Shown one piece after another: positions 8,606 to 24,574 of a stretch of DNA of 64,000 bases. Source of the DNA: Candidatus Hermodarchaeota archaeon. Lineage in GTDB: Archaea > Asgardarchaeota > Lokiarchaeia > Sigyniarchaeales > SOKP01. The stretch's first letter is position 1; each line of letters begins with the position of its first letter. Location of the stretch: contig JBHLLG010000011.1 in the NCBI GenBank assembly GCA_048885925.1, forward strand, positions 1,200 through 65,199, written 5' to 3'. Below the pieces are notes generated by a model. The model had not been told where the DNA came from. It saw only the letters and a program-made list of their open reading frames with translations, and did not search any database. Made by a program: the position numbers and the translations under genes.

Positions 8606-9130
8606 CTATTCAGTGAATTTCAGATATGTTAATCTTTTGCTAAAAATATTTATATTATTTTCCATGTACTGGAAATACTCGAAAAGAGCTTGAAAACATA
8701 TTTTTACGATATCAAAATCAGATTTCGCATCTTTTTCTCCATGAGCAATATTATGTCTAGCTATTCGAAGTTTCATGATAACTGAAAATACATTATCAGG
8801 GATATGAATTTTATAGAGATCTTTCATTAATTTTTCAATTATGTCATGAAAGCTCTGATATCGACTGTCAAATTCACTTTTGGTAATCTTTAAATCATTC
8901 ATTGTCAATTTCTTAAAGAATTCTCTTGTAAATCCTTCATATAAACTGTAAAAATAAACCAGAGCCATATTTATTAAACTCTTTAATCTTATATTGTAAC
9001 TCTCTTCATTGACCTTTTTATTCATTTTTTTATATTCAAGCCAATCTTTTGAATCTTTCAAAAACTCAAAAGTATGAATTATTATTTCATAATACTCTGA
9101 AATTTGGAGAGCCTTTTCTTCTATGGACAT
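8606..9130 (-). CDS. HEPN-domain protein (Rx4H motif), RiboL-PSP/Abi-like
   Basis: 174 aa, all-helical composition. LRIARHNIAHGEKD contains R-x4-H followed by G, as in HEPN ribonuclease families. Confidence 0.5.
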   Translation of the reverse strand: MSIEEKALQISEYYEIIIHTFEFLKDSKDWLEYKKMNKKVNEESYNIRLKSLINMALVYFYSLYEGFTREFFKKLTMNDLKITKSEFDSRYQSFHDIIEKLMKDLYKIHIPDNVFSVIMKLRIARHNIAHGEKDAKSDFDIVKICFQALFEYFQYMENNINIFSKRLTYLKFTE

Positions 9131-10926: not shown

Positions 10927-11027
10927 ATTCATTTATCATTATAATGCAATTTTTCTCGGACTTTTTAAATAAAAAATTTAGACGTACAATTTTATAACCC
11001 CAGAGACTAGAAATTTTATAATTTTAG

Positions 11028-11198
11028 CTGGATCTCTTTTTTTCTTTAAATAAAAGGGGCGAAATTAAAAGTATAATAGAAAAAAATCCTACTCATATTT
11101 ATGAAACTATTGGAAATTTCACTGTTTCTGTAACTGTCGTTGATAGGGATGGAGATTTTGACATTGAAACTAAAATTGATTATATTTTAGTTAATTAA
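11028..11198 (+). pseudogene. Orphan C-terminal PKD-domain fragment (no start codon)
   Basis: The frame is open only from nt 11028. It translates ...IIEKNPTHIYETIGNFTVSVTVVDRDGDFDIETKIDYILVN*, the classic PKD tail (P.H.Y...G.YtVtltVtD..G). There is no upstream Met or signal peptide. Confidence 0.5.
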
Positions 11199-11221
11199 TA
11201 AAATAATTTCATTTTTTTTTT

Positions 11222-11857
11222 TTAAATTACTTCTTTTAGCTTTAACTCAATTTTATTACATTGAGTATTTAGATTTTTAACATTTTCTGATAGATGACTG
11301 ATTTTTCTCTTTAAAGTTTTCGGTGAAGTTGTCCACATTATTTTTAACTCTGGTTTTATGCTTTCATCATAGTCCTTTTTAATTTCTTGTAAAAAATCCT
11401 TTAAATTATATAATTTTATTTTATAATTTTGATATTCATGTTTTTCTTTTTGGTTTTTAAATTTTATATTTAATAGTTTATCCTTCTCAAGTGAAATATA
11501 CATATCTTCAAGATCTCTTACCTTTTCTTCAACGAGGTTTACGTTTTTGATTAAATTGTTACCTTGGATATTAAGATTTTTTTCGAATTTTAATGTGCTT
11601 TTTTTTTGGCTTATTTCAGACTTTCTGTTTTTTAACAATGAGAATGTAAAATAGAAAAAAAGTAAAAGACCGCTTGTAAACAATATCTCCATAATAATAA
11701 TTCTAATAAAGTAGTTCTCAGGGAATTCTGAAATATTTGATATTATAAATACCTGAGCTACAACATATAATATCAAAAAAAGTATACTTACTATCAGCCT
11801 ATTTTTAAAAAATTCATCTATTTTTAGATAGTTTGATTTCTTTTTGGTTTTTCTCAT
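11222..11857 (-). CDS. Membrane-anchored coiled-coil protein
   Basis: 211 aa. Two N-terminal hydrophobic helices, then a K/E/L/N-rich heptad-like sequence. Confidence 0.5.
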   Translation of the reverse strand: MRKTKKKSNYLKIDEFFKNRLIVSILFLILYVVAQVFIISNISEFPENYFIRIIIMEILFTSGLLLFFYFTFSLLKNRKSEISQKKSTLKFEKNLNIQGNNLIKNVNLVEEKVRDLEDMYISLEKDKLLNIKFKNQKEKHEYQNYKIKLYNLKDFLQEIKKDYDESIKPELKIMWTTSPKTLKRKISHLSENVKNLNTQCNKIELKLKEVI

Positions 11858-12653
11858 ATTAATTCTCTTATATTGATTCCTTTGGAATCAATCTTTAATT
11901 TTTGAAATCTCATCTATTGTGATTCTTAAATTTGTCAGAGCATAAATTTTTCCCATAATAATCATGCTTTTGTTTCTTTTTTAAGAATGCTTTCTTTTTT
12001 TTCCTGTTTTGTCATTCCCAATAATTATTATGATCCTACACTATAAAATTCTTTTTGTATATTTTTTAATCAATTAAAACCTAATAGAAAAATGTTTTAA
12101 AAAAAGTTATAACTTTTCTCTTTTCTGAATATACTATTTTTTTTTAAAAAAAAAGGATTTAAAAATTTGTAACTTCACGAGCAATAGTTATTGCTTTTGG
12201 TTCACTATAACCAGTAATGTGCGTATTTGCGAAAATAAGATGTATTGTAGCGTTAAAATATAGCCTAAATAATCCTTGAACATGCTCATAACTTCCAATA
12301 CAATAAAAAGCGTATTCCCTTGCGTCATCATAATTTCCTAAACCCCATTGGGTCTCAAAATTGCTTAACTGAGAATCTAAGACTGCAATAAACCACATTT
12401 CACAAAAATAAGATCCTATTATCCGAAATCTTACCTTATCTTCTTTATATAACCATTAGCAAGTTCCAATTCATCTTCTTTATCCTTTAACTCAATTTTT
12501 AATTCTTCTAAACTTCTAATAGTGGATGTGACCGTAAAAAAAAGAATTGATTTAATTTGCTTATTTTCAAGCTCTAATGGGGATAATTAGATATATTAGA
12601 GTAACCAAATATGAGCTAATATAAATGTTTTGAGAGTACATTGGTCATATTCT

Positions 12654-15119
12654 TCAAACTTTTCGGTTCAAATAAACTAGCATCTGTAATCTAGCAACAG
12701 CATTTCGAAGGTTAGCAATAAATGCTGCAGGTTTTGCTTCCTCGAATTCTTCTAAGAAGCGACGAAATGTCTTTGGTGTATCAAATTGATCATTGAGTTT
12801 CGATTTCTCAAGATATTCTATGAAACGTTCAATCAAAGACCTGAGGTCTTTCATCCATACCATGAGGTTCTTGATTGAGTAAAATGGTTTTCGAAATCTT
12901 AAGGATTTTAGATTTTGAGTGACTATCAAATCAGCAGCGTCGAGACCGGACAGGACTGCAAAATCGCGAAATGCGGCAAGTCCGATATCAATGGTTTGAG
13001 CAAGGAAATTATGGGACTTAGAAATACGCGTTTCAAACCTATATCCGATTAATTGAACTTTCCCAAGTAGTGGTTCAATATCAATGAAATAGGATTCACC
13101 AATATCTGCTGTTCCGGGCACCACACCAGTAACCACTAAAGGCACAATATTGCCTGGTTTAATCTCTAAATTTAGGTCAATTTTTTGCGATTCACCGGGT
13201 TTTACTTTATAGTTTCGACGTCCTGGAATCTCAATTTCTATCTGCTCATACTTTAGAGTACCCAAAGCATTTACTTTCAGAGTAATTGGTAATGATTTGT
13301 CCTCCATTTCATCTGGGTATGCAATGATGATTGGGGAGAACCAAATTCTATAGCTCTGACCTGCATTGGCATTTCCATCTGCGTAGTCTCCCACTTCCAA
13401 ATTTCGTTGAACCCAGTCATTATCCTCTCTTATGACTGATTCCACTTCTCTAAATCCTAAACTGGTTATGTCTTGATCGGGTTCCGAAGGACTTCGTATC
13501 ACAGCGAAGACACAACTATGGTTAGGTGTTCCATCAGGAATTTCCCATGATAATGCTACAGTTTCTGGTGCACCGGGCGAAAGGTTATCAGGGACTGGAA
13601 CGGATCCCAGATAATGAATATTAGCTATTCCACCACCAGATCCAGGATGTTTAATGAAATACTTCACTTCCATATCTCGTGGTGGTAGGTCAACAATAGC
13701 TTCAATTTTGGCATATAAGTAGTTTGTAAAGGGATTTCCGCTTACGTCATAACGGATAGGGTGTTGATGGGCTGGAGTACCATCTGCATTGGTACCTCCA
13801 GGAGTATTTGAATGACGATTCCACAAATTCGACATTGAATAGAAATTTCGCCCCGCAGGAGCAACATTAGGTTCATTGCCTATGTCCTCAGGAAAATCAC
13901 GAATATAATGATTTGTGATATCATGAGTTAGACAACATGTATCAACGCTTGTTGACATTGCAGGGTTGTTGGCACTAATGCAATTGAAGTGAGTGTTCTC
14001 ATCAGGATTGGCTATGTTTGGCGATCCTGATGGTACTAAAATTGAGTTTCGGTCTCCTGTCCAGTTTCCTGCCCGAACAACTCCAGGATGCATTCCATCT
14101 AATGTATGGCCTAATTCATGTGCAAGAAGATTATCATTGCCAGCATTTTGGTCTGTAATTACTACTTTTGAGGTTGCATCACCTGAATCAGAAGCTACTC
14201 CTCCACCTTGACTGGTAAGTGCATTTCCAGCGAAGAACACCTCAATAGTATTAGGATCAGGGTCAGTATATGAGTCACGAATAGCGGTGTAACTTGAGGT
14301 GTTTTTAAGAGTGGCATCAGTTATAATGTGGATGGGTTGTACATCGAACTGGATACAGCATTTGCCCCAGATTGCATTTGCTGCATTGAACTGCCGGTTA
14401 GCTGAAACTCCTGTAGGATTGGCATCAGTGTCACTATCCCTAAATCCAACCGGCTGAATTTTCAATGTCCTGATGTTTGTTACAAGGTCTGGATGGCAAG
14501 GATTATTGAGGTTTGCTTTCCCAGTTTCTTTGGGTCCAAGTATCTTAACAAGCTCAACTGCTCTTAAATGCAGGAAAATATTCCTGATGATGCCAAGACC
14601 GCCCTCTTGATACACGAGAGTAACTTTACCATCTCCAATTTGGAATTCTCTTCCCGTTTTCTTTTGGGTTATTGTTAAAACACACAACAAGCGTCCCAAG
14701 AATCGTTCTCGAGGCGAATCAAATACGTCCTCACCGACTTGGATATATCCCATTTTCTGACTAATAAGTCGATAAACCATTCTGACATCCAAGTTTGCTT
14801 CGAGTATCCATTGACTATCTCTAAGTGAAATACTTCCGTCACCATGACCCTTAATACTGATATGTCCTGTGGACTCATTTTGAAGCAACACACCTGAGCT
14901 TACAAGACCAAGGGAGTTTATATTCACACCTATCCTACCTTTTTCGATATGACTTGTAGTAAATCTTAATTCACCTTTAATATCACTTCTTTGATCTAGC
15001 TTCTCTATCGTATTGATAGTTGCATCTTGTTTAATTTTGAGAATAAAAGTAGTACCCTTAGATAATCCAAGCGTCAAGTCTAATCCTTCTTCTGAGTTCT
15101 TACTATTCCTTTCCTCCAT
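12654..15119 (-). CDS. Large zincin/metzincin-like metalloprotease-domain protein, no signal peptide
   Basis: 821 aa. LLAHELGHTLDGMHPG resembles the serralysin-type HExxHxLGLxHPG motif but has D-G at the turn. Markedly higher G+C than the flanks. Confidence 0.6.
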   Translation of the reverse strand: MEERNSKNSEEGLDLTLGLSKGTTFILKIKQDATINTIEKLDQRSDIKGELRFTTSHIEKGRIGVNINSLGLVSSGVLLQNESTGHISIKGHGDGSISLRDSQWILEANLDVRMVYRLISQKMGYIQVGEDVFDSPRERFLGRLLCVLTITQKKTGREFQIGDGKVTLVYQEGGLGIIRNIFLHLRAVELVKILGPKETGKANLNNPCHPDLVTNIRTLKIQPVGFRDSDTDANPTGVSANRQFNAANAIWGKCCIQFDVQPIHIITDATLKNTSSYTAIRDSYTDPDPNTIEVFFAGNALTSQGGGVASDSGDATSKVVITDQNAGNDNLLAHELGHTLDGMHPGVVRAGNWTGDRNSILVPSGSPNIANPDENTHFNCISANNPAMSTSVDTCCLTHDITNHYIRDFPEDIGNEPNVAPAGRNFYSMSNLWNRHSNTPGGTNADGTPAHQHPIRYDVSGNPFTNYLYAKIEAIVDLPPRDMEVKYFIKHPGSGGGIANIHYLGSVPVPDNLSPGAPETVALSWEIPDGTPNHSCVFAVIRSPSEPDQDITSLGFREVESVIREDNDWVQRNLEVGDYADGNANAGQSYRIWFSPIIIAYPDEMEDKSLPITLKVNALGTLKYEQIEIEIPGRRNYKVKPGESQKIDLNLEIKPGNIVPLVVTGVVPGTADIGESYFIDIEPLLGKVQLIGYRFETRISKSHNFLAQTIDIGLAAFRDFAVLSGLDAADLIVTQNLKSLRFRKPFYSIKNLMVWMKDLRSLIERFIEYLEKSKLNDQFDTPKTFRRFLEEFEEAKPAAFIANLRNAVARLQMLVYLNRKV

Positions 15120-15613
15120 CTAATTCCACCTCTCACTATTAAGATTATTCTCATAAAATATTTACCTTATTTTTTATTGGATTACGTTATTATACATTTT
15201 AGGAAAAATTCATATTTAAAACTTTTGTCAAAGTTAAACCATTGAAAGTTCAGTTTTCAATATCTATTCTTCCATAGTTTCTAATTATAATTATAAACTA
15301 TGAATGGACTAAAGATTTGAATGGTCACAGGTATTTTATTTTTCTTTAGCAATACGATAATTTAATTAGATAAAGATACTCTACCACTCCCCTAAATGTA
15401 GATGTGTAAATGAATAATAATTTACACACACTAAGGAGATATAAACTATATATTTTCACTAATTTTTCATTGAAATAAGACGCTGAATTTACCTTTCCAT
15501 GCCAATTTCAAAAGAATTTGAGACAAACTTTATAAATTGTACCTTATGTCTCTTAAACTATAGGTAAAGACGAATCAGAATTAAATTTGAAAAAAAATAA
15601 AAAAAATAAAATT

Positions 15614-16018
15614 TTAATTAAGAAAATCAGGAAATGGAATATTAAATTCTTCACATGCTTTTTTATATTCTTTTTTAAAAAATTGATAGCTCTCTTCTGA
15701 TATGTTTCTCGTTGCATTAGCTCCCGCAGCTAATATTCTATAATTAATTTCTTCAGGCACAGAAAGGCTAGCCTTTGCTCTAGCTGAATACACAGTACTT
15801 CTTTTTTCGGGAGGGAGCTCATTAACGGTTATTACACTCGCTATAACTAAAGTGTTCATATCTTCATCGTTTAAACTATTAAATGCATATATAGTACCTT
15901 CAATTTGCTGGGCTAATTGATCCAATGGTAACTGTACCATCTCTTGTGTTCGTTTACGTGCCATTTCAATTCTCTCATCTTCGGATGCAGTAAGCATTTT
16001 TTTAAGCATTTCTTCCAT
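15614..16018 (-). CDS. Hypothetical protein
   Basis: 134-aa ORF with an ATG start and non-repetitive composition. No recognisable motif. Confidence 0.45.
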   Translation of the reverse strand: MEEMLKKMLTASEDERIEMARKRTQEMVQLPLDQLAQQIEGTIYAFNSLNDEDMNTLVIASVITVNELPPEKRSTVYSARAKASLSVPEEINYRILAAGANATRNISEESYQFFKKEYKKACEEFNIPFPDFLN

Positions 16019-16363
16019 TTTAGGATCTATTTATATCACCTCTAACTATTCTACGTCTATGTACAAATTACAATTGTTAAATCAATCGATTATAAGGAAT
16101 AAACAAAGTTTTATTCTAACTAATAAAACCATTCATTTATTTTTGAATTTAATAATATTTTAAAGGGTAATATCAACATAATGATATTTCTAAAAAAAAA
16201 ACAGATTTTAATATTGACGGGTTATTCAATCTTAAAATTTTAAGAGTTTAAGACTTCTTCTTGATAGTAAGAATTATAAGAAAAAAAAATTAATTATAAA
16301 TTGTAGAAGATAATTGGATTTATAAGAGAAAAGTACCCCACTGCTCTCTTTTTCCATTATTTT

Positions 16364-17251
16364 CTATAAATTACCGAAAATTTGCTCTTTATTTTTATAT
16401 AACCACCGCGGGATTTCAATTTCTTGCCAGTCTTCTGATAAATTTTCAAGAATTTTGATTTGACTTTTTGGTAACCATGTCTCCCTATTTCGTCTTGAAA
16501 TAATTAGTATTGCTTTCGCAATTTCTTTTTTAATCTTAACTTGTGTCCTAATTACTTCATCAACATATTCTTCTTTTGAAAGAATTGGTTTCATTTTATT
16601 ACCCATCCATGCATAGTATTCATATGATACTTTCATTGTTTCATCAAAAGGATTTTTTGAAATCATAATACCTGTTTCAGTTTTTACTTTATTAGCTGGA
16701 ATTTTATATTTGCTATCTCGTAATTTTTTTCTTTGAAATTGCTTTAGGTATCTTAGAAAACTATGAAGAGCCATAGTAAATGGAGTGATTGCAAAATTAT
16801 ATTTCTCAGACATAAAAGGGATTTGTTCTGGAACTTTATCTTCATCTCCTTTATAAATCATCCCGTTTCTTGACCATCCAGTACCTATTAGAAAGCAATC
16901 TACATTTTGAACCATTTTACCATTGATGAAAAATTTTGCTTTTTCAGTAATGAAATATCCATAATAACGAGTTAAATTGAATGCACCTTCAATTAATTTT
17001 CCATAGTGATCTCCTGGTTTCAATTCTAAAAATCCTGCTCGAATAGTAGTCCTATTTTTTGGCAAAAAGTCCCGATCTAATATTTCGCTTTCATAATATG
17101 GATCATAAAAGAAAAGATCGGGTACTGAGCTACCCACACCTTGAGTGTGAAATTGAGGCAATCCTAATGTATTTTTCTTATTAAGGAACGAAATAAATCC
17201 TGCTTTTTCTAAATCGCGTGTGATTATTTTAGTTAAATCCAATGTTTCCAA
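16364..17251 (-). CDS. Hypothetical protein, possible PD-(D/E)xK nuclease fold
   Basis: TTG start. ...DLEKAGF...SSVPDLFFYD...(about 30 aa)...AGFLELKPG gives an E / PD / ExK arrangement. The motif spacing is longer than usual. Confidence 0.3.
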   Translation of the reverse strand: METLDLTKIITRDLEKAGFISFLNKKNTLGLPQFHTQGVGSSVPDLFFYDPYYESEILDRDFLPKNRTTIRAGFLELKPGDHYGKLIEGAFNLTRYYGYFITEKAKFFINGKMVQNVDCFLIGTGWSRNGMIYKGDEDKVPEQIPFMSEKYNFAITPFTMALHSFLRYLKQFQRKKLRDSKYKIPANKVKTETGIMISKNPFDETMKVSYEYYAWMGNKMKPILSKEEYVDEVIRTQVKIKKEIAKAILIISRRNRETWLPKSQIKILENLSEDWQEIEIPRWLYKNKEQIFGNL

Positions 17252-17526
17252 TTTTTTTTCACTTTTTATTTTTAATTTTGATATAAAGATTTTTGTAACA
17301 TTTACATTGCTAATATGTTACGTTTTGGTAGATTTGAGTTATTATACTTATTTGACAGCAATTAAAAATAATTTTTATTAATAGGCTATTACAATCTATT
17401 TTTTAATTAAAGACCTTTTTCGCCTTAGAAGACAATTATATTTACTATTTATTAAAGTCGTAATAATAACAATTTAAATAGGATATAAATCTAAAATCCA
17501 TTTAATATATACCAACGAAATTATGT

Positions 17527-17832
17527 GTGTTGATTAACATAAAATCTAAGCAAGACCAATTTGTAGGTGTAAGATTTACAGAAAAAGAAAAAGAATTAAT
17601 AGATAAGTTTATTCAAAAGAAAAATATCTCTTATAACGAATTTATTCGTGATGCCGTCTTTTCATATATTAATAATATAGAAACTGTGAAAAATAAAGTT
17701 AATATAAAAAAAATTTATTCAAATATTCAAGAATTTGAGAAAATTCTTCCTGAATTAATAAGAAAAATTCATAATTTATATAGGGAATGTGAGCAATTTA
17801 AACTAAATAAGGATGTTTATTTTATTGTGTAA
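17527..17832 (+). CDS. Ribbon-helix-helix (CopG/MetJ-like) DNA-binding protein
   Basis: QFVGVRFTEKEKELIDKFIQKKNISYNEFIRDAVFSYI fits the RHH beta-strand plus two-helix pattern. GTG start. Confidence 0.5.
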   Translation: MLINIKSKQDQFVGVRFTEKEKELIDKFIQKKNISYNEFIRDAVFSYINNIETVKNKVNIKKIYSNIQEFEKILPELIRKIHNLYRECEQFKLNKDVYFIV

Positions 17833-18036
17833 TGTTATTTATTCAAATTTCAATTCTCTAACTATTTATTTACTAGTTTTCAATATTAAAAGTAATGAGT
17901 TATCTCATTAAGACAAAATTCGAGTACCGAGTTCACGAAATCATCAAGCGATTTGTAAATAAATTCATTAATTTTTAGGAATCACATTGGCTAAATAAAA
18001 GAAAAGAGTGTCAAAATCTTTTTATAACTCTATGAC

Positions 18037-19236
18037 TTAATAGAAATTATGTAATTTAGCGTTAAGAGTGAATAGATTTAAGAACATATTTGCATAATTC
18101 CTTGGGAATTCTCTATTCTTATATAGATTTGATCTGAATCTTATTCTTTTATTTAATAGGAAGACGTCTACAACTGCAAGATCATTTGGATAACCGGATT
18201 GAGTGGATCTTTTAATCTTTACGACCTCATCCCATGAAAAATAGGATTTTTTACCAAAAAAGCGGTAATATACTCCCGAAGTGCTAATCACTAAAAATCT
18301 CCTTAAAACTAGAAAGAAAGGTGAACCAACAAAATACCAAATTAATAAAAAATATAGATATTCACTTATATTAAATAATCCATAGAAAGGATTTAAGAGA
18401 GAGATTATTATAACGGGGATAGACCAAATAACTAACAACAGGAGCCATATTCCAATATCAAATCCACCTTTCAATACAAATATTTTCTTTTTTAAGAAAT
18501 CATTTTGAAGCTGTATATTTGTCGTATAATTACCAAAATTATAGTTTTTTTTCTTGTACTCCTCTAAAGTAGCTTTTAATTGGTCCTTCCATGTGTCAAT
18601 AATTACTATATCCGAGTCTATAGCATTATTAACTGCTTGTGGTTGCCAATTAAATATTCCTGTCTTTCTATAATCATAATAGGCAAAAAAGATATACATC
18701 AATAATGTGGCTTTACTTACAAATGATTTATTCTGCGAAATTTCTTTACATGAAAAATTGCTTGCTTCTATTTTAAGATTATCTCCGTTAGACATAGAAA
18801 GATATATTTTATTAAGAAAATAATTCATTTGAATCTCTTCCCAGTTATATCCTCTAATTCGTTGAGTTCGCATTTTATATGCAATTCCTTCGGGACCTAC
18901 AATAATATAGCGTGATCTTTTGTACCACAATCCAAGACCAAAAAATATACCGCAAGGAATACTTGAAATCTCCAGAAAAATGAGAATAAAGGATAAAAAT
19001 GAATATGTTTCGAAAGTTATAAATGAAATCTGCGTGCTCAAAACGAATGAGTATGGTAATACGATGAACCCAATTAAAAAAAATGGGGTAGTGTTTACAT
19101 GACCACCAATAAAGACAATCCTTCTCCCTTTTTCTATAGATTCTCTGAGAGTATGGAGAGATGTAATGCTATTGTATTCATAATTTCCATTTTTAAACTG
19201 TTTATATCTGGAAACATATTCATCTAGATTTTTCAT
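18037..19236 (-). CDS. Membrane protein made of two tandem copies of the module found in ORF 7854..8462
   Basis: Module 1: LDEYVSRYKQFKNGNYEYNS...GRRIVFIGGHVNTTPFFLIGFIV. Module 2: LEEYKKKNYNFGNYTTNIQLQNDFLKKKIFVLKGGFDIGIWLLLL. Each is followed by TM helices and a beta-rich segment. Confidence 0.6.
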   Translation of the reverse strand: MKNLDEYVSRYKQFKNGNYEYNSITSLHTLRESIEKGRRIVFIGGHVNTTPFFLIGFIVLPYSFVLSTQISFITFETYSFLSFILIFLEISSIPCGIFFGLGLWYKRSRYIIVGPEGIAYKMRTQRIRGYNWEEIQMNYFLNKIYLSMSNGDNLKIEASNFSCKEISQNKSFVSKATLLMYIFFAYYDYRKTGIFNWQPQAVNNAIDSDIVIIDTWKDQLKATLEEYKKKNYNFGNYTTNIQLQNDFLKKKIFVLKGGFDIGIWLLLLVIWSIPVIIISLLNPFYGLFNISEYLYFLLIWYFVGSPFFLVLRRFLVISTSGVYYRFFGKKSYFSWDEVVKIKRSTQSGYPNDLAVVDVFLLNKRIRFRSNLYKNREFPRNYANMFLNLFTLNAKLHNFY

Positions 19237-19469
19237 TATTTCGACATATTTTACAAGAAATTTTAATTTATAAAAATTTACTTATTGGGTAATTTATCTT
19301 GAATTTATGAATAGAAAAGAAAAAAAATTTAATTAGATCCTTACCAATGCTTATTAGGATAATAAAAATTGGTATTACTAAGCTAATTATGTTATAAATT
19401 ACTACTTTTATATTCATGCTATCTAACTCCAAATTTCTGCTAAAATTAAAAAAATAAAAAAAAGAGAAT

Positions 19470-20810
19470 TTAGAATTTAGTTTTCCTTTTAGAGATAAAT
19501 CTCCCTATAAATCCAATTATTATAAAACTAACAAGAATAGAAAAACCAATAATATAACTTATGTAATCTGGTGGTTCTGGTGGTTCTGGTTCAACGTCCT
19601 TAATTACAATTAAGTCTTTACATGCGACATTTCCTTTACCATCTCTAACATAGAATATGATTGTGATAAGACCTTTTTCCAGATTATTCCATGCCTCTTG
19701 GTTAATTACATCAATACCATCAGCAGAAATATACTCGCCATAAGAATCCGTCCCTGTTTTGAAATTTATTAAACTAAAAGTATAATTGGTTATTCCATTA
19801 TCTAATGTATACCATTGAGAAACAATACCCGAACTTAATCTTTCTACAATATAAAGATTAAAAGCTGGTGACGTTGTATTGAATATCTGATTTTCTTGAG
19901 GCTCTCTGATATGGATAGAAGGCGGTACAAAATCATCAAATATTAATGTATTATTTTCGATTATATTACCCTCGCAATAATGACCATTCACGCCCATTTC
20001 TTTAATGCTATATTGATAATAATGAACTATATTGTCAGTAATGTTATTGAAGTCAGATATCTCAAGTTCCATGCCCGTTTCAGAATGATCTATAAGATTT
20101 CCTTTTATAATATTATAATTACTATGATCTCGTAGATATATTCCCGTGCGACCGTAATTACCTATTAAACTATTATTTATAATCTGATTATTATCTGATC
20201 TCCATATACTTATTCCGCAATCTGTATTAATTCCGATATTATTCTCTTGAATTATAATATTTTCGCAATATGCTCCTACATAAATCCCATAATCACCATT
20301 ATTAAAACATGTATTATTTTTAACAATAATATTATTAGAGTAATACCATATTTCAATTCCATTATTCTGAACATTATCATAACAGATATTATTAATTATT
20401 AAACCATTTGAGGAGTTCCTTACCCATATTCCATTTCCGCCATAACCAACTATCCAACTACCATCTTCTTTCTTAATAGGCATCCTACCTGCTCCATGAA
20501 ATATACAATCCTTTATAATAAAAAACACGTTTGAACCGTCAATTTTTAAACAATGTTCTAACCCGTTAGTGAAATAATCGTAATCCGTATGTTCAATCTC
20601 TATATTTTCGATAATATACGGATTATTTACTGTTCCATTACCACTACACCATGATTGAGATATGGATAAATTATACCATCCTAAATTTCCATTGATAACG
20701 AATGGATCTACTTCAATTAATCCGTTCTCGGCTCTAATCGGCTGTATAAACAAAATCATACTAAAAACTATAAGCCCTAATACTAAAATTGTTTTTCTTT
20801 TCATTTTCAC
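19470..20810 (-). CDS. Cell-surface right-handed beta-helix (PbH1/NosD-like) repeat protein with C-terminal TM anchor
   Basis: Signal-like N-terminus. WCSGNGTVNNPYIIENIEI, then repeated N..I..N....GI units. PEPPEPP linker plus TM segment plus basic tail (RFISKRKTKF). Confidence 0.7.
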   Translation of the reverse strand: MKMKRKTILVLGLIVFSMILFIQPIRAENGLIEVDPFVINGNLGWYNLSISQSWCSGNGTVNNPYIIENIEIEHTDYDYFTNGLEHCLKIDGSNVFFIIKDCIFHGAGRMPIKKEDGSWIVGYGGNGIWVRNSSNGLIINNICYDNVQNNGIEIWYYSNNIIVKNNTCFNNGDYGIYVGAYCENIIIQENNIGINTDCGISIWRSDNNQIINNSLIGNYGRTGIYLRDHSNYNIIKGNLIDHSETGMELEISDFNNITDNIVHYYQYSIKEMGVNGHYCEGNIIENNTLIFDDFVPPSIHIREPQENQIFNTTSPAFNLYIVERLSSGIVSQWYTLDNGITNYTFSLINFKTGTDSYGEYISADGIDVINQEAWNNLEKGLITIIFYVRDGKGNVACKDLIVIKDVEPEPPEPPDYISYIIGFSILVSFIIIGFIGRFISKRKTKF

Positions 20811-21073
20811 ACTCGCATATTAATAATATAAATTTTCTTATTTTCTAGAAATTCTGATTAATTATAATTTCTGCAAGAATTTCAAATGTCTTCTCTACAT
20901 TTAACGCAATTTTTTTTTGTAATAGGAATTTATTACCTACTTTTATAAGACATTTTACCTAATATGTATTATTTTTTTATTAAATTAAAAAAAGAAGATA
21001 ATCAGGATTTATACTTTCTATTTATGAAGTTTTTTCCTGATAGATTGAATATTCTTTTATCTCAGGGTTAAAA

Positions 21074-22141
21074 TCAAGAATTTTCTCTAATAATTTTCTT
21101 AAAGTTATAACATTCAAGTTTACCATCAGGCGAGATTAGTTGGATTCTATTTCCATCTGGTTGTTCTTCAAAATCCAGTGGAACCCTAAATGACCAAGAA
21201 GGAAATACTCTTCTTTCTACGAGAGCACTACGTTCAGCTTCCTTTTTATTCTGCTCGTTTGACCAATCTTTAATTTGCGAAATGGCTTCATCTTCATTAC
21301 CTGCAAATGCAATATCCACTTTTCCTGTAGACATAGCTTTCCTCATTGCCCATCCAGCTTTTTCCGTGTTGCCCATCTTATTGTATACATCATGGAGATC
21401 CATCCATGCTTTAACGATACTAGAATCAAGTTTTAAGCCTTCTTGAATAGCATTCGCAGCTTGTTTTAATTTTCCAACTTCTGAGAGTGTAGTACCATAA
21501 TGAAACCAATACGGAGGAACTTTTGAATTCAGTTTCAATGCTTTCTCAAATGCTTTTAATGCTTTTTTTAAATCACCGCTATTCTTATAGGTAATTCCAA
21601 GTTCAGCCCAGGCTTCAGCAAAATTAGGATCAATCGTTAAAGCCTGTTCATATGCTTTTATCGCTTCCTTGTATTGTCTATTTTCTTCCAATGCAGAAGC
21701 TAATTATCTCCATCCATCTAAACGATTTGGGTCAAGCTTCACACACTTCTGAAATACGTCAATTGCGGGAATATAATCACCTTTTCCAATATATGCCATT
21801 CCAAGGGAGTACCATGGACTAGGATTATTTGCATCTAAATCGATAGCTTTTTTACTTGTCTCAATAGAGAGATCAAACTGGTTAGTCTCCATATACATAT
21901 GCCCTAAATTTGTCCACACTAAGGAATTCTTAGGATTTTTCTCTATGCACTTTTTACATGTGTCGATAGCCATATCTAGCCGTCCTATAGAGCGGTAGAT
22001 AGCCCCTAGAAGCATCCATGCTCCCACAAACTGTGGTTCTTCATTTATTTTCTTTTCAAGTAATTCGAAGGCTTGATTTGTTTGCCCCGTAGACATCAAT
22101 TGTTGTATTTTTTTTTGCAATTCTAATTCTTTAAAACTCAT
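21074..22141 (-). pseudogene. TPR-repeat gene interrupted by one in-frame TAA (or a recent gene fission)
   Basis: ORFs 21704..22141 and 21074..21691 share one frame and lie 12 nt apart. Read-through gives ...DPNRLDGWR*LASALEENRQYKEAIKAYEQALTIDPN, so a single TPR unit straddles the stop at 21704-21706. Confidence 0.55.
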
Positions 22142-22252: not shown

Positions 22253-23017
22253 TTATGTTTCATTATTCTTTAGGTCTCTGAGTTGAGATATGGCATGCTC
22301 ACCATAGTTAATAACCAATTCAAGGAATTCTCGATATCCTGTTGCTGATGCAATATTTTCTGGTATACTTTCCTTCAACTCAGGATTATTAGTAAATCTC
22401 ATGGTAATTGGCAATATTTGTCGTCTCTTACTAAATATAAACCTATAGGAAGTGAATTCTTCCATTAACTCACTAAAATGATCATATTTTTTAATAAGAG
22501 CAATAAATTTTTTCTTATTATCATCTGTTAACTCTTTGAACCAGTTAGGAAGATAAAGTGGTTCACAATATTTAAGTAGTGGATCTAACTTTTCAGTAAT
22601 TTGGTTTATAAAATATCTCTCATACCATGTGTCTAAAAAAGCTTCTTGGAATTGATCCCAGGTAACCAACTCTAAATTTGTAAACTCTGATGCTTTAAAT
22701 GCACCTGTTTGAAATCCAACCATACTGATAATATAACCGATATTCGCACCAATATCTGTCAATACTGTTCTGAAACTATGAATTATTTGTTGAGGAACTC
22801 TATTTTGCCAATATTTACACTCACATATTATGATATATTTCCTTCTATCAATTATTTCTTCAGCATAAACGTCAATTTCAACTTCACCTCTTACATGTTT
22901 AATTACCTTCTCTATCTCAACAGAGAATCCACATTCTTCTAATATTTTTGCTACTTCATTTTGAAGTTCTTGCCAGTTTTTAGGTTCTTTAGATGTAATC
23001 ATATGATATTTACTCAA
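22253..23017 (-). CDS. Mrr-like (type IV) restriction endonuclease domain protein
   Basis: WQELQNEVAKILEECGFSVE...GEVEIDVYAEE...YIIICECKYWQNRVPQQIIHSF...GYIISMVGFQTGA is the Mrr_cat pattern (D...E.K core). The start is ambiguous: TTG at 23017 or ATG 15 nt downstream at 23002. Confidence 0.7.
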   Translation of the reverse strand: MSKYHMITSKEPKNWQELQNEVAKILEECGFSVEIEKVIKHVRGEVEIDVYAEEIIDRRKYIIICECKYWQNRVPQQIIHSFRTVLTDIGANIGYIISMVGFQTGAFKASEFTNLELVTWDQFQEAFLDTWYERYFINQITEKLDPLLKYCEPLYLPNWFKELTDDNKKKFIALIKKYDHFSELMEEFTSYRFIFSKRRQILPITMRFTNNPELKESIPENIASATGYREFLELVINYGEHAISQLRDLKNNET

Positions 23018-23299: not shown

Positions 23300-24574
23300 T
23301 TATGTAACGTCGATTGATTCCCCACACTTAGGACAAACGATCTTCTTCTTTTTAGGATCTATATATCGCACCACAGTGTTACATTTTCGGCAAAACGTTC
23401 CTTTAGATCCCTTATCATATTTATTTCCTATGCAAATATTAACTCGGTCTAGTTCCACATATTCAGGAGCACTTTCCTTCATGAATCTTGTAGCAAACTC
23501 ATCAGGACCATTACCCATAAGAAAATCCATTTCTTCCCGATAAATTGGCATAACTTGAAGAAAATATACTGGTTTACGTCCAATTAGCAATTCACAGAAA
23601 GTGGGAGACAATTCTTTATAAGGAAACTTAAACAAAAATGCACATAATTTAGTATTGTTAGCAAAAGGTACCGGAGGATGCCCGTTTCCAAAAGTATGCC
23701 CTATTGAGAACCATTGCCGATTTCCATGTACGTATTTAACCAATCTAAATAATTTATCGATTACCCAGTAATATTTATCTTTTTTTACTGATTTTAGAGG
23801 TAAAGGCCAATCTGGTGATAACAACATAAACAATTCAGCACAGGTAGGTTCTGCCATTGAAGGTGCCATCATTGGATATGCACTCATACCAGAGGTAACC
23901 AACACCCCATACTTTCTGTGATCATCAGGAGGAACAATATGCAACTTTATGGGAATCTGAGGAATTTCATTATCGGTCAAAGTGTTATTAATCTTTCCAA
24001 TATTGGCCTCTATATGTGTTGTAATAAATTGGGTTTCTATTTGAGATATTTTTATTTGTAAGGGATTAGCTTTTTTAAGAGCTTTTTCACGAGATATTTT
24101 ACCATCGTTCATCTGTTTCACAATATCATCTTTCTGTTTTGATATTTTCAGCAATTCTGCAAGTATGGGATCAGTTTGATAAACGTTTTCCTGACCAAAG
24201 TATTCATACTTTCTGCCTTCCATCATTCTTTGGTACGATTGTAAAGAGACTAATATTGAATTTTGAGGATCATGGAATGTATGTTTATTCACATCAATTC
24301 GCTCATAAATTGTTGCCTCCGGAGCGTGAGATACTTTAAACCTAATAAACTCTCGAAATGCGCTCTTTATCGAATCTACACTTAATGCTTTTTTATTTGG
24401 AAGATCGTCAATTAAATCCGGATATGTGTAGGGAGCAAATTTAGACACAATACAATTATTTCCCTCCTTACCTTCTTTATCATCGAAGATATCGAAGTCT
24501 CTCGGATCTCCATATACACGTCTTTTTTCAAACTCTATTGCTAATTGATCGAAATCATTATAGTCGATCAACAT
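23300..24574 (-). CDS. SUFU-like (suppressor-of-fused family) domain protein with C-terminal zinc ribbon
   Basis: YGVLVTSGMSAYPMMAP...AELFMLLSPDWPL...YYWVIDKLFRLVKYVHGN..WFSIGHTFGNG...FLFKFP resembles bacterial SUFU-family proteins. The tail is CRKCNTVVRYIDPKKKKIVCPKCG. Confidence 0.5.
   Translation of the reverse strand: MLIDYNDFDQLAIEFEKRRVYGDPRDFDIFDDKEGKEGNNCIVSKFAPYTYPDLIDDLPNKKALSVDSIKSAFREFIRFKVSHAPEATIYERIDVNKHTFHDPQNSILVSLQSYQRMMEGRKYEYFGQENVYQTDPILAELLKISKQKDDIVKQMNDGKISREKALKKANPLQIKISQIETQFITTHIEANIGKINNTLTDNEIPQIPIKLHIVPPDDHRKYGVLVTSGMSAYPMMAPSMAEPTCAELFMLLSPDWPLPLKSVKKDKYYWVIDKLFRLVKYVHGNRQWFSIGHTFGNGHPPVPFANNTKLCAFLFKFPYKELSPTFCELLIGRKPVYFLQVMPIYREEMDFLMGNGPDEFATRFMKESAPEYVELDRVNICIGNKYDKGSKGTFCRKCNTVVRYIDPKKKKIVCPKCGESIDVT

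Follow-up and report, generated by a model that had tools for sequence, protein, structure and literature searches.

A predicted metzincin-clan zinc protease of bacterial affinity in a Hermodarchaeota genome

Results and discussion

A gene for an 821-residue protein

The 64,000-nucleotide stretch of a Candidatus Hermodarchaeota archaeon genome analyzed here (contig JBHLLG010000011.1 of assembly GCA_048885925.1, positions 1,200 to 65,199; referred to below as the window) contains, at 12654..15119 on the minus strand, an uninterrupted open reading frame (ORF) of 2466 nt that heads this study. Its product, as judged from the window's ORF list and a full-length alignment, is an 821-residue multidomain protein that we place in the metzincin clan and that has no signal peptide. 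A previous, sequence-only reading of this DNA had marked the gene out as a recently acquired G+C-rich island encoding a metzincin-like zinc protease. Our overall interpretation, to which we give a probability of about 0.6, is that the gene encodes a bacterial-derived, multidomain zinc endopeptidase that is latent, of effector type and made without a signal peptide. Of the identity of the gene and of its bacterial origin we are highly confident; the two functional components, latency and an effector role, are advanced tentatively and are weighed separately below.

The protein aligns end to end (90-98% coverage) with bacterial proteins of about 790-830 residues, and its ORF is intact in the sister assembly as well, the gene sequence being identical between independent Logan and NCBI contigs. 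The zinc-binding motif AHELGHTLDGMHPG occupies residues 333-346 (14082..14123, minus strand; found by alignment and direct reading), so that the intact frame and the motif bear out the description of an 821-residue metzincin-like zinc protease. A Shine-Dalgarno-like sequence, GAGAGGTGG, read directly from the DNA at 15126..15134 (minus strand), lies 7-15 nt 5' of the M1 start codon, and no such motif is found ahead of M388, the start chosen by the NCBI annotation. Because residues 1-821 match the bacterial proteins of about 790-830 residues and GAGAGGTGG precedes M1 rather than M388, we take the 821-residue reading to be correct. The NCBI records (MFX0035172.1 / MFX1306224.1) comprise the C-terminal 434 residues only, from M388, with antisense ORFs of 45 and 72 residues laid over the protease half; the public annotation therefore leaves out the protease half of the protein, and a correction is needed.

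It is highly improbable that the gene is a bacterial fragment fused to an archaeal contig by an error of assembly or binning. The Logan contigs do break on either side of it, at 12011-12028 and at 15464-15493, and one of them, the 3.5-kb L013, holds only the gene and a 79-residue ORF; at the downstream junction (12011..12028), L012 and L013 end at 12011 and L016 and L017 start at 12028. Against an artefact, L012 is unbroken from 12011 to 21161 and crosses the upstream edge into archaeal genes, both junctions are spanned in two NCBI assemblies (the second has the same gene and flanks at 99.97% identity, with all three mismatches outside the gene), and the gene also occurs on Logan contigs from separate sequencing runs. 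L013 itself includes AT-rich, host-like intergenic DNA and the 79-residue ORF, which is host-typical. We regard a chimeric assembly as unlikely because L012 crosses the edge, because G+C at third codon positions (GC3) is near host values, and because the nearest bacterial relative is just 54% identical.

Zinc site and catalytic domain

Residues 215-395 (13935..14477, minus strand) are assigned to a catalytic metzincin-like domain on the strength of structural matches by Foldseek, weak Pfam matches and the family profile. The zinc site is complete: H334, E335, H338 and H344 are invariant in 26/26 sequences. At the turn, the sequence-only reading had pointed to an Asp-Gly pair in place of the canonical Gly; this is true of the present copy, which has Asp341 followed by Gly342 where the family has Gly and so departs from metzincins at this position, and it is a substitution in this copy, the family consensus being the canonical HELGHVLGLLHP. 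Across the superfamily (n = 142) the residues at the turn are G (95), N (18), S (8), A (5), R (5) and D (3). The Met-turn position is occupied by Leu361 (14037..14039, minus strand), the alignment giving a consensus of GTVMxP against SILVP here, so that the Met-turn methionine is missing from the window protein; Leu is also present in P0001, in P0002 and in short forms of the family. MMP-2 withstands a Met-to-Leu change at the Met-turn, and so does protease C, though with reduced kinetics (PMC1266349).

These two replacements raise the question of whether the protein is a decaying or non-catalytic passenger, a pseudo-peptidase kept after its transfer, for which one might also cite the failure to find partner genes and the NCBI annotation of the C-terminal 434 residues alone. 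We think this improbable. The 2466-nt ORF is unbroken in a genome of 29% G+C, where stop codons arise readily; the zinc ligands, the catalytic Glu and more than 70 family-invariant residues are all retained; a Shine-Dalgarno-like motif stands 5' of M1; many apparently intact relatives have Leu at the Met-turn, where it is tolerated experimentally, as cited above; and GC3 has shifted toward host usage.

Curated models do not place the domain in a family. In Pfam the window protein has a sub-threshold match to Reprolysin_3 only (14.8 bits; cutoff 22.4), no curated metzincin family model (M10, M12B, M43) reaches its threshold on it, and the matches of 26 relatives are weak and scattered over M10, M12B, M43 and M66. 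PADLOC (E up to 0.1), NCBIfam and PHROGs gave no match for the 821-residue protein, and neither did a search of the PDB with the single sequence. The family profile, compared with the PDB, matches only the zinc-site helix of serralysins, adamalysins and MMPs (E 0.006-0.05), with the adamalysin Met-turn CIMRP aligned to the family's GTVMxP. At the level of predicted structure (models with a predicted local distance difference test [pLDDT] of 83-89), the top Foldseek matches are all metzincins, namely PAPP-A and fragilysin (BFT), with probabilities of 0.93-1.00 and E values of 2e-8 to 7e-5; global template-modeling (TM) scores are low because the targets are multidomain or differently oriented. 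On its zinc site and modeled fold the protein is best filed in the metzincin clan, MA(M), outside every curated family, and we predict that it is a zinc endopeptidase.

Domain architecture

The AlphaFold model of the full-length protein (pLDDT 82.9) falls into five parts. The N-terminal domain (residues 24-193; 14541..15050, minus strand) has eight long antiparallel strands in a β-barrel-like arrangement, with pLDDT mostly above 90. In Foldseek, the domain alone resembles eight-stranded barrels such as those of DynF, OmpW, Ail and PsbO, and it also matches the prodomain side of profragilysin; it has no sequence relative in the PDB (profile search) or in Pfam (residues 1-214). In the short (about 380 residues) and long relatives inspected it stands N-terminal to the protease domain, and it is absent from the eCIS_core fusions described below. 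From the model, we propose that it is a prodomain or cap.

The inter-domain linker (residues 194-214; 14478..14540, minus strand), in which pLDDT drops below 50 at residues 198-208, contains Cys208 (nt 14496-14498) in the context NPCHPD; the patch after it reads NIRTLK in the window copy and is basic (NRRRL) in the family consensus. All 25 full-length relatives have the linker Cys, as do 102/142 superfamily members, compared with about 39% expected by chance; the eCIS_core fusions keep this Cys and one C-terminal Cys, their other cysteines being lost. A model of residues 1-395 has a pLDDT of 88.6 and a predicted TM score (pTM) of 0.89, which predicts that the N-terminal domain and the protease pack together as a single rigid body.

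Downstream of the protease, the middle β-rich region (residues 396-600; 13320..13934, minus strand), delimited from model and alignment, is the most conserved part of the protein, with the motifs CCLTHD, DFPxDxGxEP, SNxWNR, KHPGSGGG, HSCxF and NDWxQRNL. It is followed by a β-sandwich domain (residues ~601-700; 13020..13319, minus strand; model secondary structure, pLDDT ~85-92) and by a C-terminal helical bundle (residues ~701-821; 12657..13019, minus strand), modeled as seven helices between 702 and 820 and giving weak coiled-coil matches only. For residues 396-821 there is no Pfam match and no PDB sequence relative, and the fold matches of the middle region are to generic β-sandwiches only; the BFVD viral fold library likewise gave generic β-sandwich and tail-protein matches only. 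With residues 1-214 and 396-821 both free of Pfam matches, the earlier description of long flanking domains of unassigned function is accurate. Four full-length relatives (P0009, P0010, P0012 and P0017; alignment A1, columns ~865-996) have a further conserved C-terminal domain of about 140 residues, DKLE(I/V)LYDHDL…FYRI(V/I), that is absent from the archaeal copy.

Foldseek ranks PAPP-A first for both models (probability 1.00). For the 1-395 model, the second place goes to the profragilysin-3 (BFT) zymogens, which align with it over about 350-400 columns that take in both prodomain and catalytic domain (E 6e-6 to 7e-5, probability 0.99-1.00, TM about 0.3). No sensor or NTPase domain is recognizable with Pfam in the 821 residues. 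Nor did the window protein or 38 relatives show a signal-peptide-like or transmembrane hydrophobic stretch, apart from a borderline one in P0003, in agreement with the missing secretion signal of the sequence-only reading.

Bacterial relatives and phylogeny

A search of 5.8 billion clustered proteins returned 28 homologs, the best of which, P0001 (carried by a 2.9-kb contig with a GC3 of 0.57), is 54% identical to the window protein and the others 34-47%. A scan of 185,579 species-representative genomes of GTDB located 10 loci, all bacterial and spread over at least five phyla (Bacteroidota, Gemmatimonadota, Acidobacteriota, Alphaproteobacteria and Actinomycetota); they belong to Saprospiraceae, Dokdonia (two loci), another Bacteroidota, Gemmatimonadaceae, Acidobacteria, Thermoanaerobaculia, Alphaproteobacteria, Allosphingosinicella and Acidimicrobiales. 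No further archaeal homolog was found in either collection. In a neighbor-joining tree, the archaeal protein pairs with P0001 (bootstrap 100/100), the pair joins P0002 next (86/100), and this group sits with Bacteroidota (Dokdonia, Saprospiraceae) at 100/100. P0002 comes from a 522-kb contig whose two-partner-secretion genes indicate that its host is a Gram-negative bacterium.

Transfer from bacteria to the archaeon is well supported, because the relatives are bacterial only and the gene nests in a bacterial clade at 100/100; we accordingly interpret these sequences as reflecting horizontal acquisition from bacteria by the Hermodarchaeota lineage. Homology and phylogeny, which the sequence-only reading had looked to for the donor, place the gene within a clade that contains Bacteroidota; an identity of 54% means either an unsampled donor lineage or an old transfer. 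The closest homologs are thus bacterial, not vertically inherited Asgard proteins. Bacterial gene transfer is ordinary for Asgard genomes, and as one more bacterial gene in an accessory region the case has modest weight.

Base composition of the gene

The window has a mean G+C content of 28.9%. The base counts cited in the sequence-only reading are exact (30/60 G+C at 13561-13620 and 10/60 at 11221-11280), and the sharp change that it described is evident in 1-kb windows: those inside the gene have 40.7% and 41.4% G+C (z = 4.3 and 4.5), against a mean of 28.5% elsewhere (standard deviation 2.9, maximum 35.7). The gene as a whole, at 40.3% compared with about 30% for other genes, has the highest G+C fraction (0.403, z = 2.9) of the 50 ORFs of at least 100 residues and falls outside their gene-to-gene variance. 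The rise is limited to the ORF, however: the boundaries of the G+C-rich 'island' are exactly those of the 821-residue frame, and the intergenic DNA on both sides has 24-27% G+C.

Much of this difference lies in the protein. We calculated an expected G+C for each gene by recoding its protein with the window's own codon preferences, which gave 0.357 for the 821-residue gene compared with a mean of 0.301 for the other genes. About 55% of the 10-point excess derives from amino-acid composition (G, P, R, D, T, V and A are raised; K, I, F, Y and E are lowered), and about 45% (0.046) is synonymous, with a GC3 of 0.305 as against 0.195 expected and a residual (z = 2.8) that is the largest among the 50 genes. 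Tetranucleotide distance is the largest in the window when taken raw (z = 12.5) but ordinary after normalization for base composition (z = 0.2, rank 56/139). Much of the island-like look thus appears to be due to a Gly/Pro/Arg/Asp/Ala-rich protein in a genome of 29% G+C. The homologs are composed in a similar way: G+C and GC3 are 0.400 and 0.312 in Saprospiraceae, 0.392 and 0.283 in the bacterium of contig L001, and 0.365 and 0.21 in Dokdonia, whose genome has 34% G+C. Because homologs in low-G+C bacteria share the composition of the archaeal copy, the gene is island-like in any AT-rich genome, and the date of its transfer is therefore not readable from composition alone; either GC3 has mostly converged on the host or the donor was AT-rich already. 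Of the 'recent horizontal acquisition' put forward earlier, the foreign source stands, the relatives being bacterial only, and the recency does not, in view of the 54% identity, the host-like flanks and normalized oligonucleotides, and the uninformative composition.

These figures also bear on the converse idea, already disfavored, that the gene is native to Asgard archaea, inherited vertically, and resembles an island through its amino-acid composition only. The 55% share of amino-acid composition in the G+C excess is in keeping with it, as are the host-like flanks and G+C-normalized tetranucleotides. Opposed to it are the synonymous part of the excess (GC3 0.305 versus 0.195), the nesting of the gene inside bacterial sequences at 100/100, and the lack of any other archaeal homolog among the 5.8 billion proteins and the GTDB species genomes, and we consider a native origin very improbable.

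The locus in the archaeon

The gene is surrounded by ORFans in a stretch that varies between near-identical strains. From 24018 down to 11115 the sister assembly (GCA_048937855.1, JBHLMR010000035.1; L015/L018) is 99.97% identical, and beyond that point its genes are different throughout; Logan contig L017 also ends at 11115, just past a 211-residue gene, and this position is either a structural variant or an assembly junction. A third metagenome-assembled genome (GCA_048940305.1; L024 4127-4174) is 100% identical down to 16838 and then carries a diverged in-frame allele. The switch falls inside the 295-residue gene at 16364-17251(-), with DLPSQSIPYISERYNIV in one allele and DKVPEQIPFMSEKYNFA in the other, and the sequences suggest that near-identical strains have recombined at this point.

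At the upstream edge of the island lies a conserved 39-nt element, ATTTTTCATTGAAATAAGACGCTGAATTTACCTTTCCAT (15462..15500, plus strand), which coincides with the assembly-graph junction at 15464-15493, whose 30 nt are exactly those that L013 and L019 have in common. The element, which includes the palindrome TTTCA-T-TGAAA, occurs once in the window and recurs, with 30 bases identical, in three otherwise unrelated JGI contigs of 30-34% G+C (L026 1361-1455, L027 4330-4388 and L028 2159-2195); similarity to each of them breaks off at 15461/15464. Rfam has no match for the element (a scan of 11000-17000 gave nothing credible), and the junction 30-mer is absent from IMG/VR. Possible roles are those of a mobile-element terminus, a recombination site or a regulatory element. 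No other part of the window is shared by the JGI contigs, and no empty-site allele was found.

The marks of a classical integrated genomic island (repeats, a tRNA target, an integrase) are absent. A tRNA scan found none in the 64-kb window, there is no integrase or recombinase among the labeled neighbors of the gene, and the one direct repeat, 12004-12020 (CTGTTTTGTCATTCCCA) and 15483-15499 (CTGAATTTACCTTTCCA), is a weak one of 11/17 matches that overlaps both assembly junctions and might arise by chance in AT-rich DNA. A search for flanking repeats or integration sites, as the sequence-only reading had proposed, yielded no convincing signature of integration.

The 79-residue ORF downstream (12159..12398, minus strand), which the sequence-only reading took to be compositionally atypical, turned out to be host-typical, with a G+C of 0.333 (expected, 0.332) and a GC3 of 0.205 (host mean, 0.21). 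It has no match in the family libraries, is found on the host's own contigs only and never lies beside the homologs; as a co-transferred gene of immunity type it was rejected. We also rejected an operon partner: an all-against-all comparison of ORFs over 12 loci found no common neighbor, except between the two Dokdonia loci, which are of the same genus.

Some of the wider neighborhood has a mobile-element or defense flavor, namely the genes at 17527-17832(+), 22253-23017(-), 8606-9130(-), 21704-22141(-) and 16364-17251(-). The first encodes an RHH protein with weak RelB, Arc, NikA and MbpA matches, and the C-terminus of the 295-residue product of the last matches phrog_8389 (E 1.5e-7). A 145-residue neighbor matches phrog_7590 (E 7e-12), a restriction-type protein with an Mrr_cat domain is encoded near the gene, and a faint HEPN_RiboL-PSP match was also obtained in the neighborhood. 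Farther out, a SUFU (Suppressor of fused) domain is clearly recognizable in the 424-residue protein at 23300-24574(-) (PF05076, E 1e-31); this domain is best known for its role in eukaryotic Hedgehog signaling.

Mobility in bacteria

In bacteria the gene is sporadic in occurrence and looks mobile. On L023 281-10390 (JGI 3300002922, BIH7_10000016), the homolog P0025 lies between genes for a 649-residue serine recombinase, an HNH protein, an AAA_25 protein and a second resolvase, and adjoins a truncated Mg-chelatase-type gene; L023 is probably an integrative element with the protease as cargo. On L001 10001-12430 (ERZ25767047 ctg37828) the homolog, here P0002, adjoins an rve transposase and two nSTAND1 genes, and its G+C is 0.392 compared with 0.445 for its surroundings; because it is AT-richer than its flanks and next to a transposase, it looks foreign there also. 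Searches with tblastn found no relatives in sequenced plasmids and phages.

A superfamily with eCIS_core fusions

An exhaustive profile search over 1.84 billion representatives, with clusters counted at two thresholds, gave 835 clusters at E <= 1e-3 and 170 at E <= 1e-30. Their members include long forms, many proteins of about 380 residues that consist of the N-terminal domain and the protease, and proteins that match by the catalytic domain only. All six of the six proteins tested from the last class combine eCIS_core (PF13699, E ~1e-32 to 1e-36) with OmpA or PG_binding_1 and the catalytic domain. DUF4157, or eCIS_core, has been described as marking the N-termini of toxins that carry their toxic domain at the C-terminus (Geller et al. 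2021, PMC8213781). The word 'effector-like', applied to the window protein in the sequence-only reading, receives indirect support from this arrangement, the catalytic domain standing 3' of eCIS_core in toxin-style fusions.

A second large protein search, seeded with short forms, yielded five matches. One short form, P0100 (421 residues), lies 33 nt downstream of a divergent 415-residue paralog with the motif HEFGHAMGLEH (L029 8721-11266, ERZ25039514 contig_74754), in a co-directional cluster whose upstream genes encode an HTH-NB-ARC-TPR STAND NTPase, a 902-residue CHAT protease and a LysM protein.

We are dealing, then, with a sizeable unannotated superfamily of the metzincin clan, without signal peptides, for which neither Pfam nor NCBIfam has a model and no structure has been solved. 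Its catalytic module recurs behind eCIS_core, which suggests a class of proteolytic effectors that is open to testing. What gives the finding its value is this uncharted family, together with the annotation error.

A tentative model of function

By analogy with profragilysin, the N-terminal domain and linker would serve as an internal prodomain that holds the enzyme latent in the cytoplasm of the producer; activation would follow cleavage or displacement near the conserved Cys208 and the basic linker, and the middle and C-terminal domains would mediate target binding or assembly. We rate this zymogen mechanism at slightly under even odds. The enzyme itself would be a proteolytic effector in inter-microbial or anti-invader conflict, and not a housekeeping or nutritional protease. 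We favor such a role over housekeeping because of the patchy, mobile distribution, the toxin-type fusions and the variable-region context, and put it forward a shade more cautiously still than the mechanism.

A number of observations weigh against this interpretation as a whole. The match with the zymogens is one of local fold and domain order in predicted models, not a rigid superposition (TM about 0.3). The eCIS_core fusions co-conserve the linker Cys and a single C-terminal Cys, for which reason a structural Cys pair is at least as good an explanation as a cysteine switch. The window copy lacks two metzincin hallmarks (Gly341 to Asp and Met361 to Leu), and proteolytic activity is a prediction from sequence and models for every member of the family. 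PF13699 was matched neither in the window protein nor in its six nearest neighbors, so that the protein falls outside the eCIS toxins as that domain marks them; the labeled flanking genes bear no injection, secretion or phage-tail-like Pfam labels; and no defense-system model of PADLOC matches. As to origin, the tree is a neighbor-joining one only, of 34 sequences and 791 columns, and P0001, which has no assigned taxon, leaves some room for an archaeal intermediate donor.

Part of the same evidence would fit an intracellular, self-directed protease that is switched on by invaders or stress (in abortive infection, cell death or regulation) and is never delivered. The family has no export signal and moves alone as a single-gene unit; the archaeal copy sits in a variable region near the Mrr_cat, RHH/RelB-like and faint HEPN genes; and nSTAND1 genes lie beside P0002, as a STAND NTPase and CHAT protease do beside P0100. 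These STAND and CHAT associations are anecdotal, however, at two of about nine neighborhoods, the protein has neither a PADLOC match nor a recognizable sensor or NTPase domain, and fusions with eCIS_core, OmpA and PG-binding domains suggest action outside the producer. We therefore consider a self-directed role unlikely, and retain the latent effector as our working interpretation. A bolder extension of it, in which the superfamily is a large prokaryotic stock of metzincin zymogens that includes the supposedly orphan fragilysin-type zymogen, its members being latent conflict weapons (placed behind eCIS_core in certain bacteria and free-standing in others) and the Asgard copy a captured bacterial weapon or defense protease, is speculative, and we would not expect it to hold in full. 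If it were true, a bacterial weapon or defense protease would have been taken up by a close relative of eukaryotes.

Comparison with known systems

Among the serralysins (M10B), the alkaline protease of P. aeruginosa (PDB 1AKL/1KAP) is the best PDB match of the family profile (E = 0.006 over about 35 residues), its zinc site HEIGHTLGLSHPG being aligned with HELGHVLGLLHPG of the family. The earlier label 'serralysin-like' is apt as regards the Pro after the third His (135/142 relatives; Pro345 here), and serralysins also resemble the family in having no N-terminal Sec signal. The label goes no further: Peptidase_M10 does not match the window protein and stays below threshold among the relatives (best E 5e-4), in line with the result that no curated metzincin model passes its cutoff, and the window protein differs from M10B members in having no match to RTX β-roll or calcium-binding repeats and no type I secretion C-terminus. 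The family's Met-turn, about 17 residues past the third His, has adamalysin-like spacing, unlike that of serralysins. Membership in the adamalysins (reprolysins, M12B) is in turn contradicted by a sub-threshold model score and by Pro, not Asp, after the third His.

The linker Cys, in its Pro/Asp-rich context (NPCHPD) shortly before the catalytic domain, recalls the cysteine switch of MMPs and ADAMs, whose motif in MMPs is PRCGxPD; it is a resemblance only. The MMP prodomain is a three-helix bundle, whereas the N-terminal domain of the window protein is modeled as a β-barrel, and the Cys may be structural, since even the fusions without the N-terminal domain conserve it together with a C-terminal Cys. 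With eCIS_core toxins the family shares the absence of a signal peptide and, in the fusions, a catalytic domain (profile ~200-370) at the C-terminal toxin position; the window protein differs in having the β-barrel N-terminal domain in place of eCIS_core.

PAPP-A (M43; PDB 8D8O, 7UFG, 8HGH) is the best structural match of both models (E 2e-8 to 4e-7, probability 1.00, TM 0.14-0.29). Its layout, an N-terminal β-sandwich followed by the metzincin domain and further β-rich modules, is like that of the window protein. The likeness is structural only, since Peptidase_M43 (PF05572) does not match the window protein and is weak in 3/26 relatives (best E 0.0012), and PAPP-A, which is eukaryotic and secreted, has LNR and CCP modules of which the window protein has none.

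Together with PAPP-A, profragilysin-3 (M10C; PDB 3P24, 7PND, 8WEM) is closest to the window protein in layout. The profragilysin prodomain reportedly has no structural relatives, and the protein is reportedly derived from a eukaryotic ADAM-like gene. At the sequence level, profragilysin resembles the family profile at the zinc helix only (E = 0.79). It has a signal peptide, whereas the window protein has no N-terminal hydrophobic segment, and the latter has about 425 extra C-terminal residues in three domains and a Leu at the Met-turn. In proBFT-3, the catalytic domain (about 186 residues) owes its latency to a prodomain of about 190 residues together with a linker that fills the cleft and binds zinc through an Asp (PMC9514063). 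The linker of profragilysin thus blocks the cleft and gives an Asp zinc ligand, in place of which the window family has a conserved linker Cys, perhaps structural. In overall plan the two agree: each has a β-rich N-terminal domain of about 170-190 residues, a linker and a metzincin domain of about 180 residues, and Foldseek aligns the model of residues 1-395 over nearly the whole zymogen with a probability of 1.00 (TM about 0.3).

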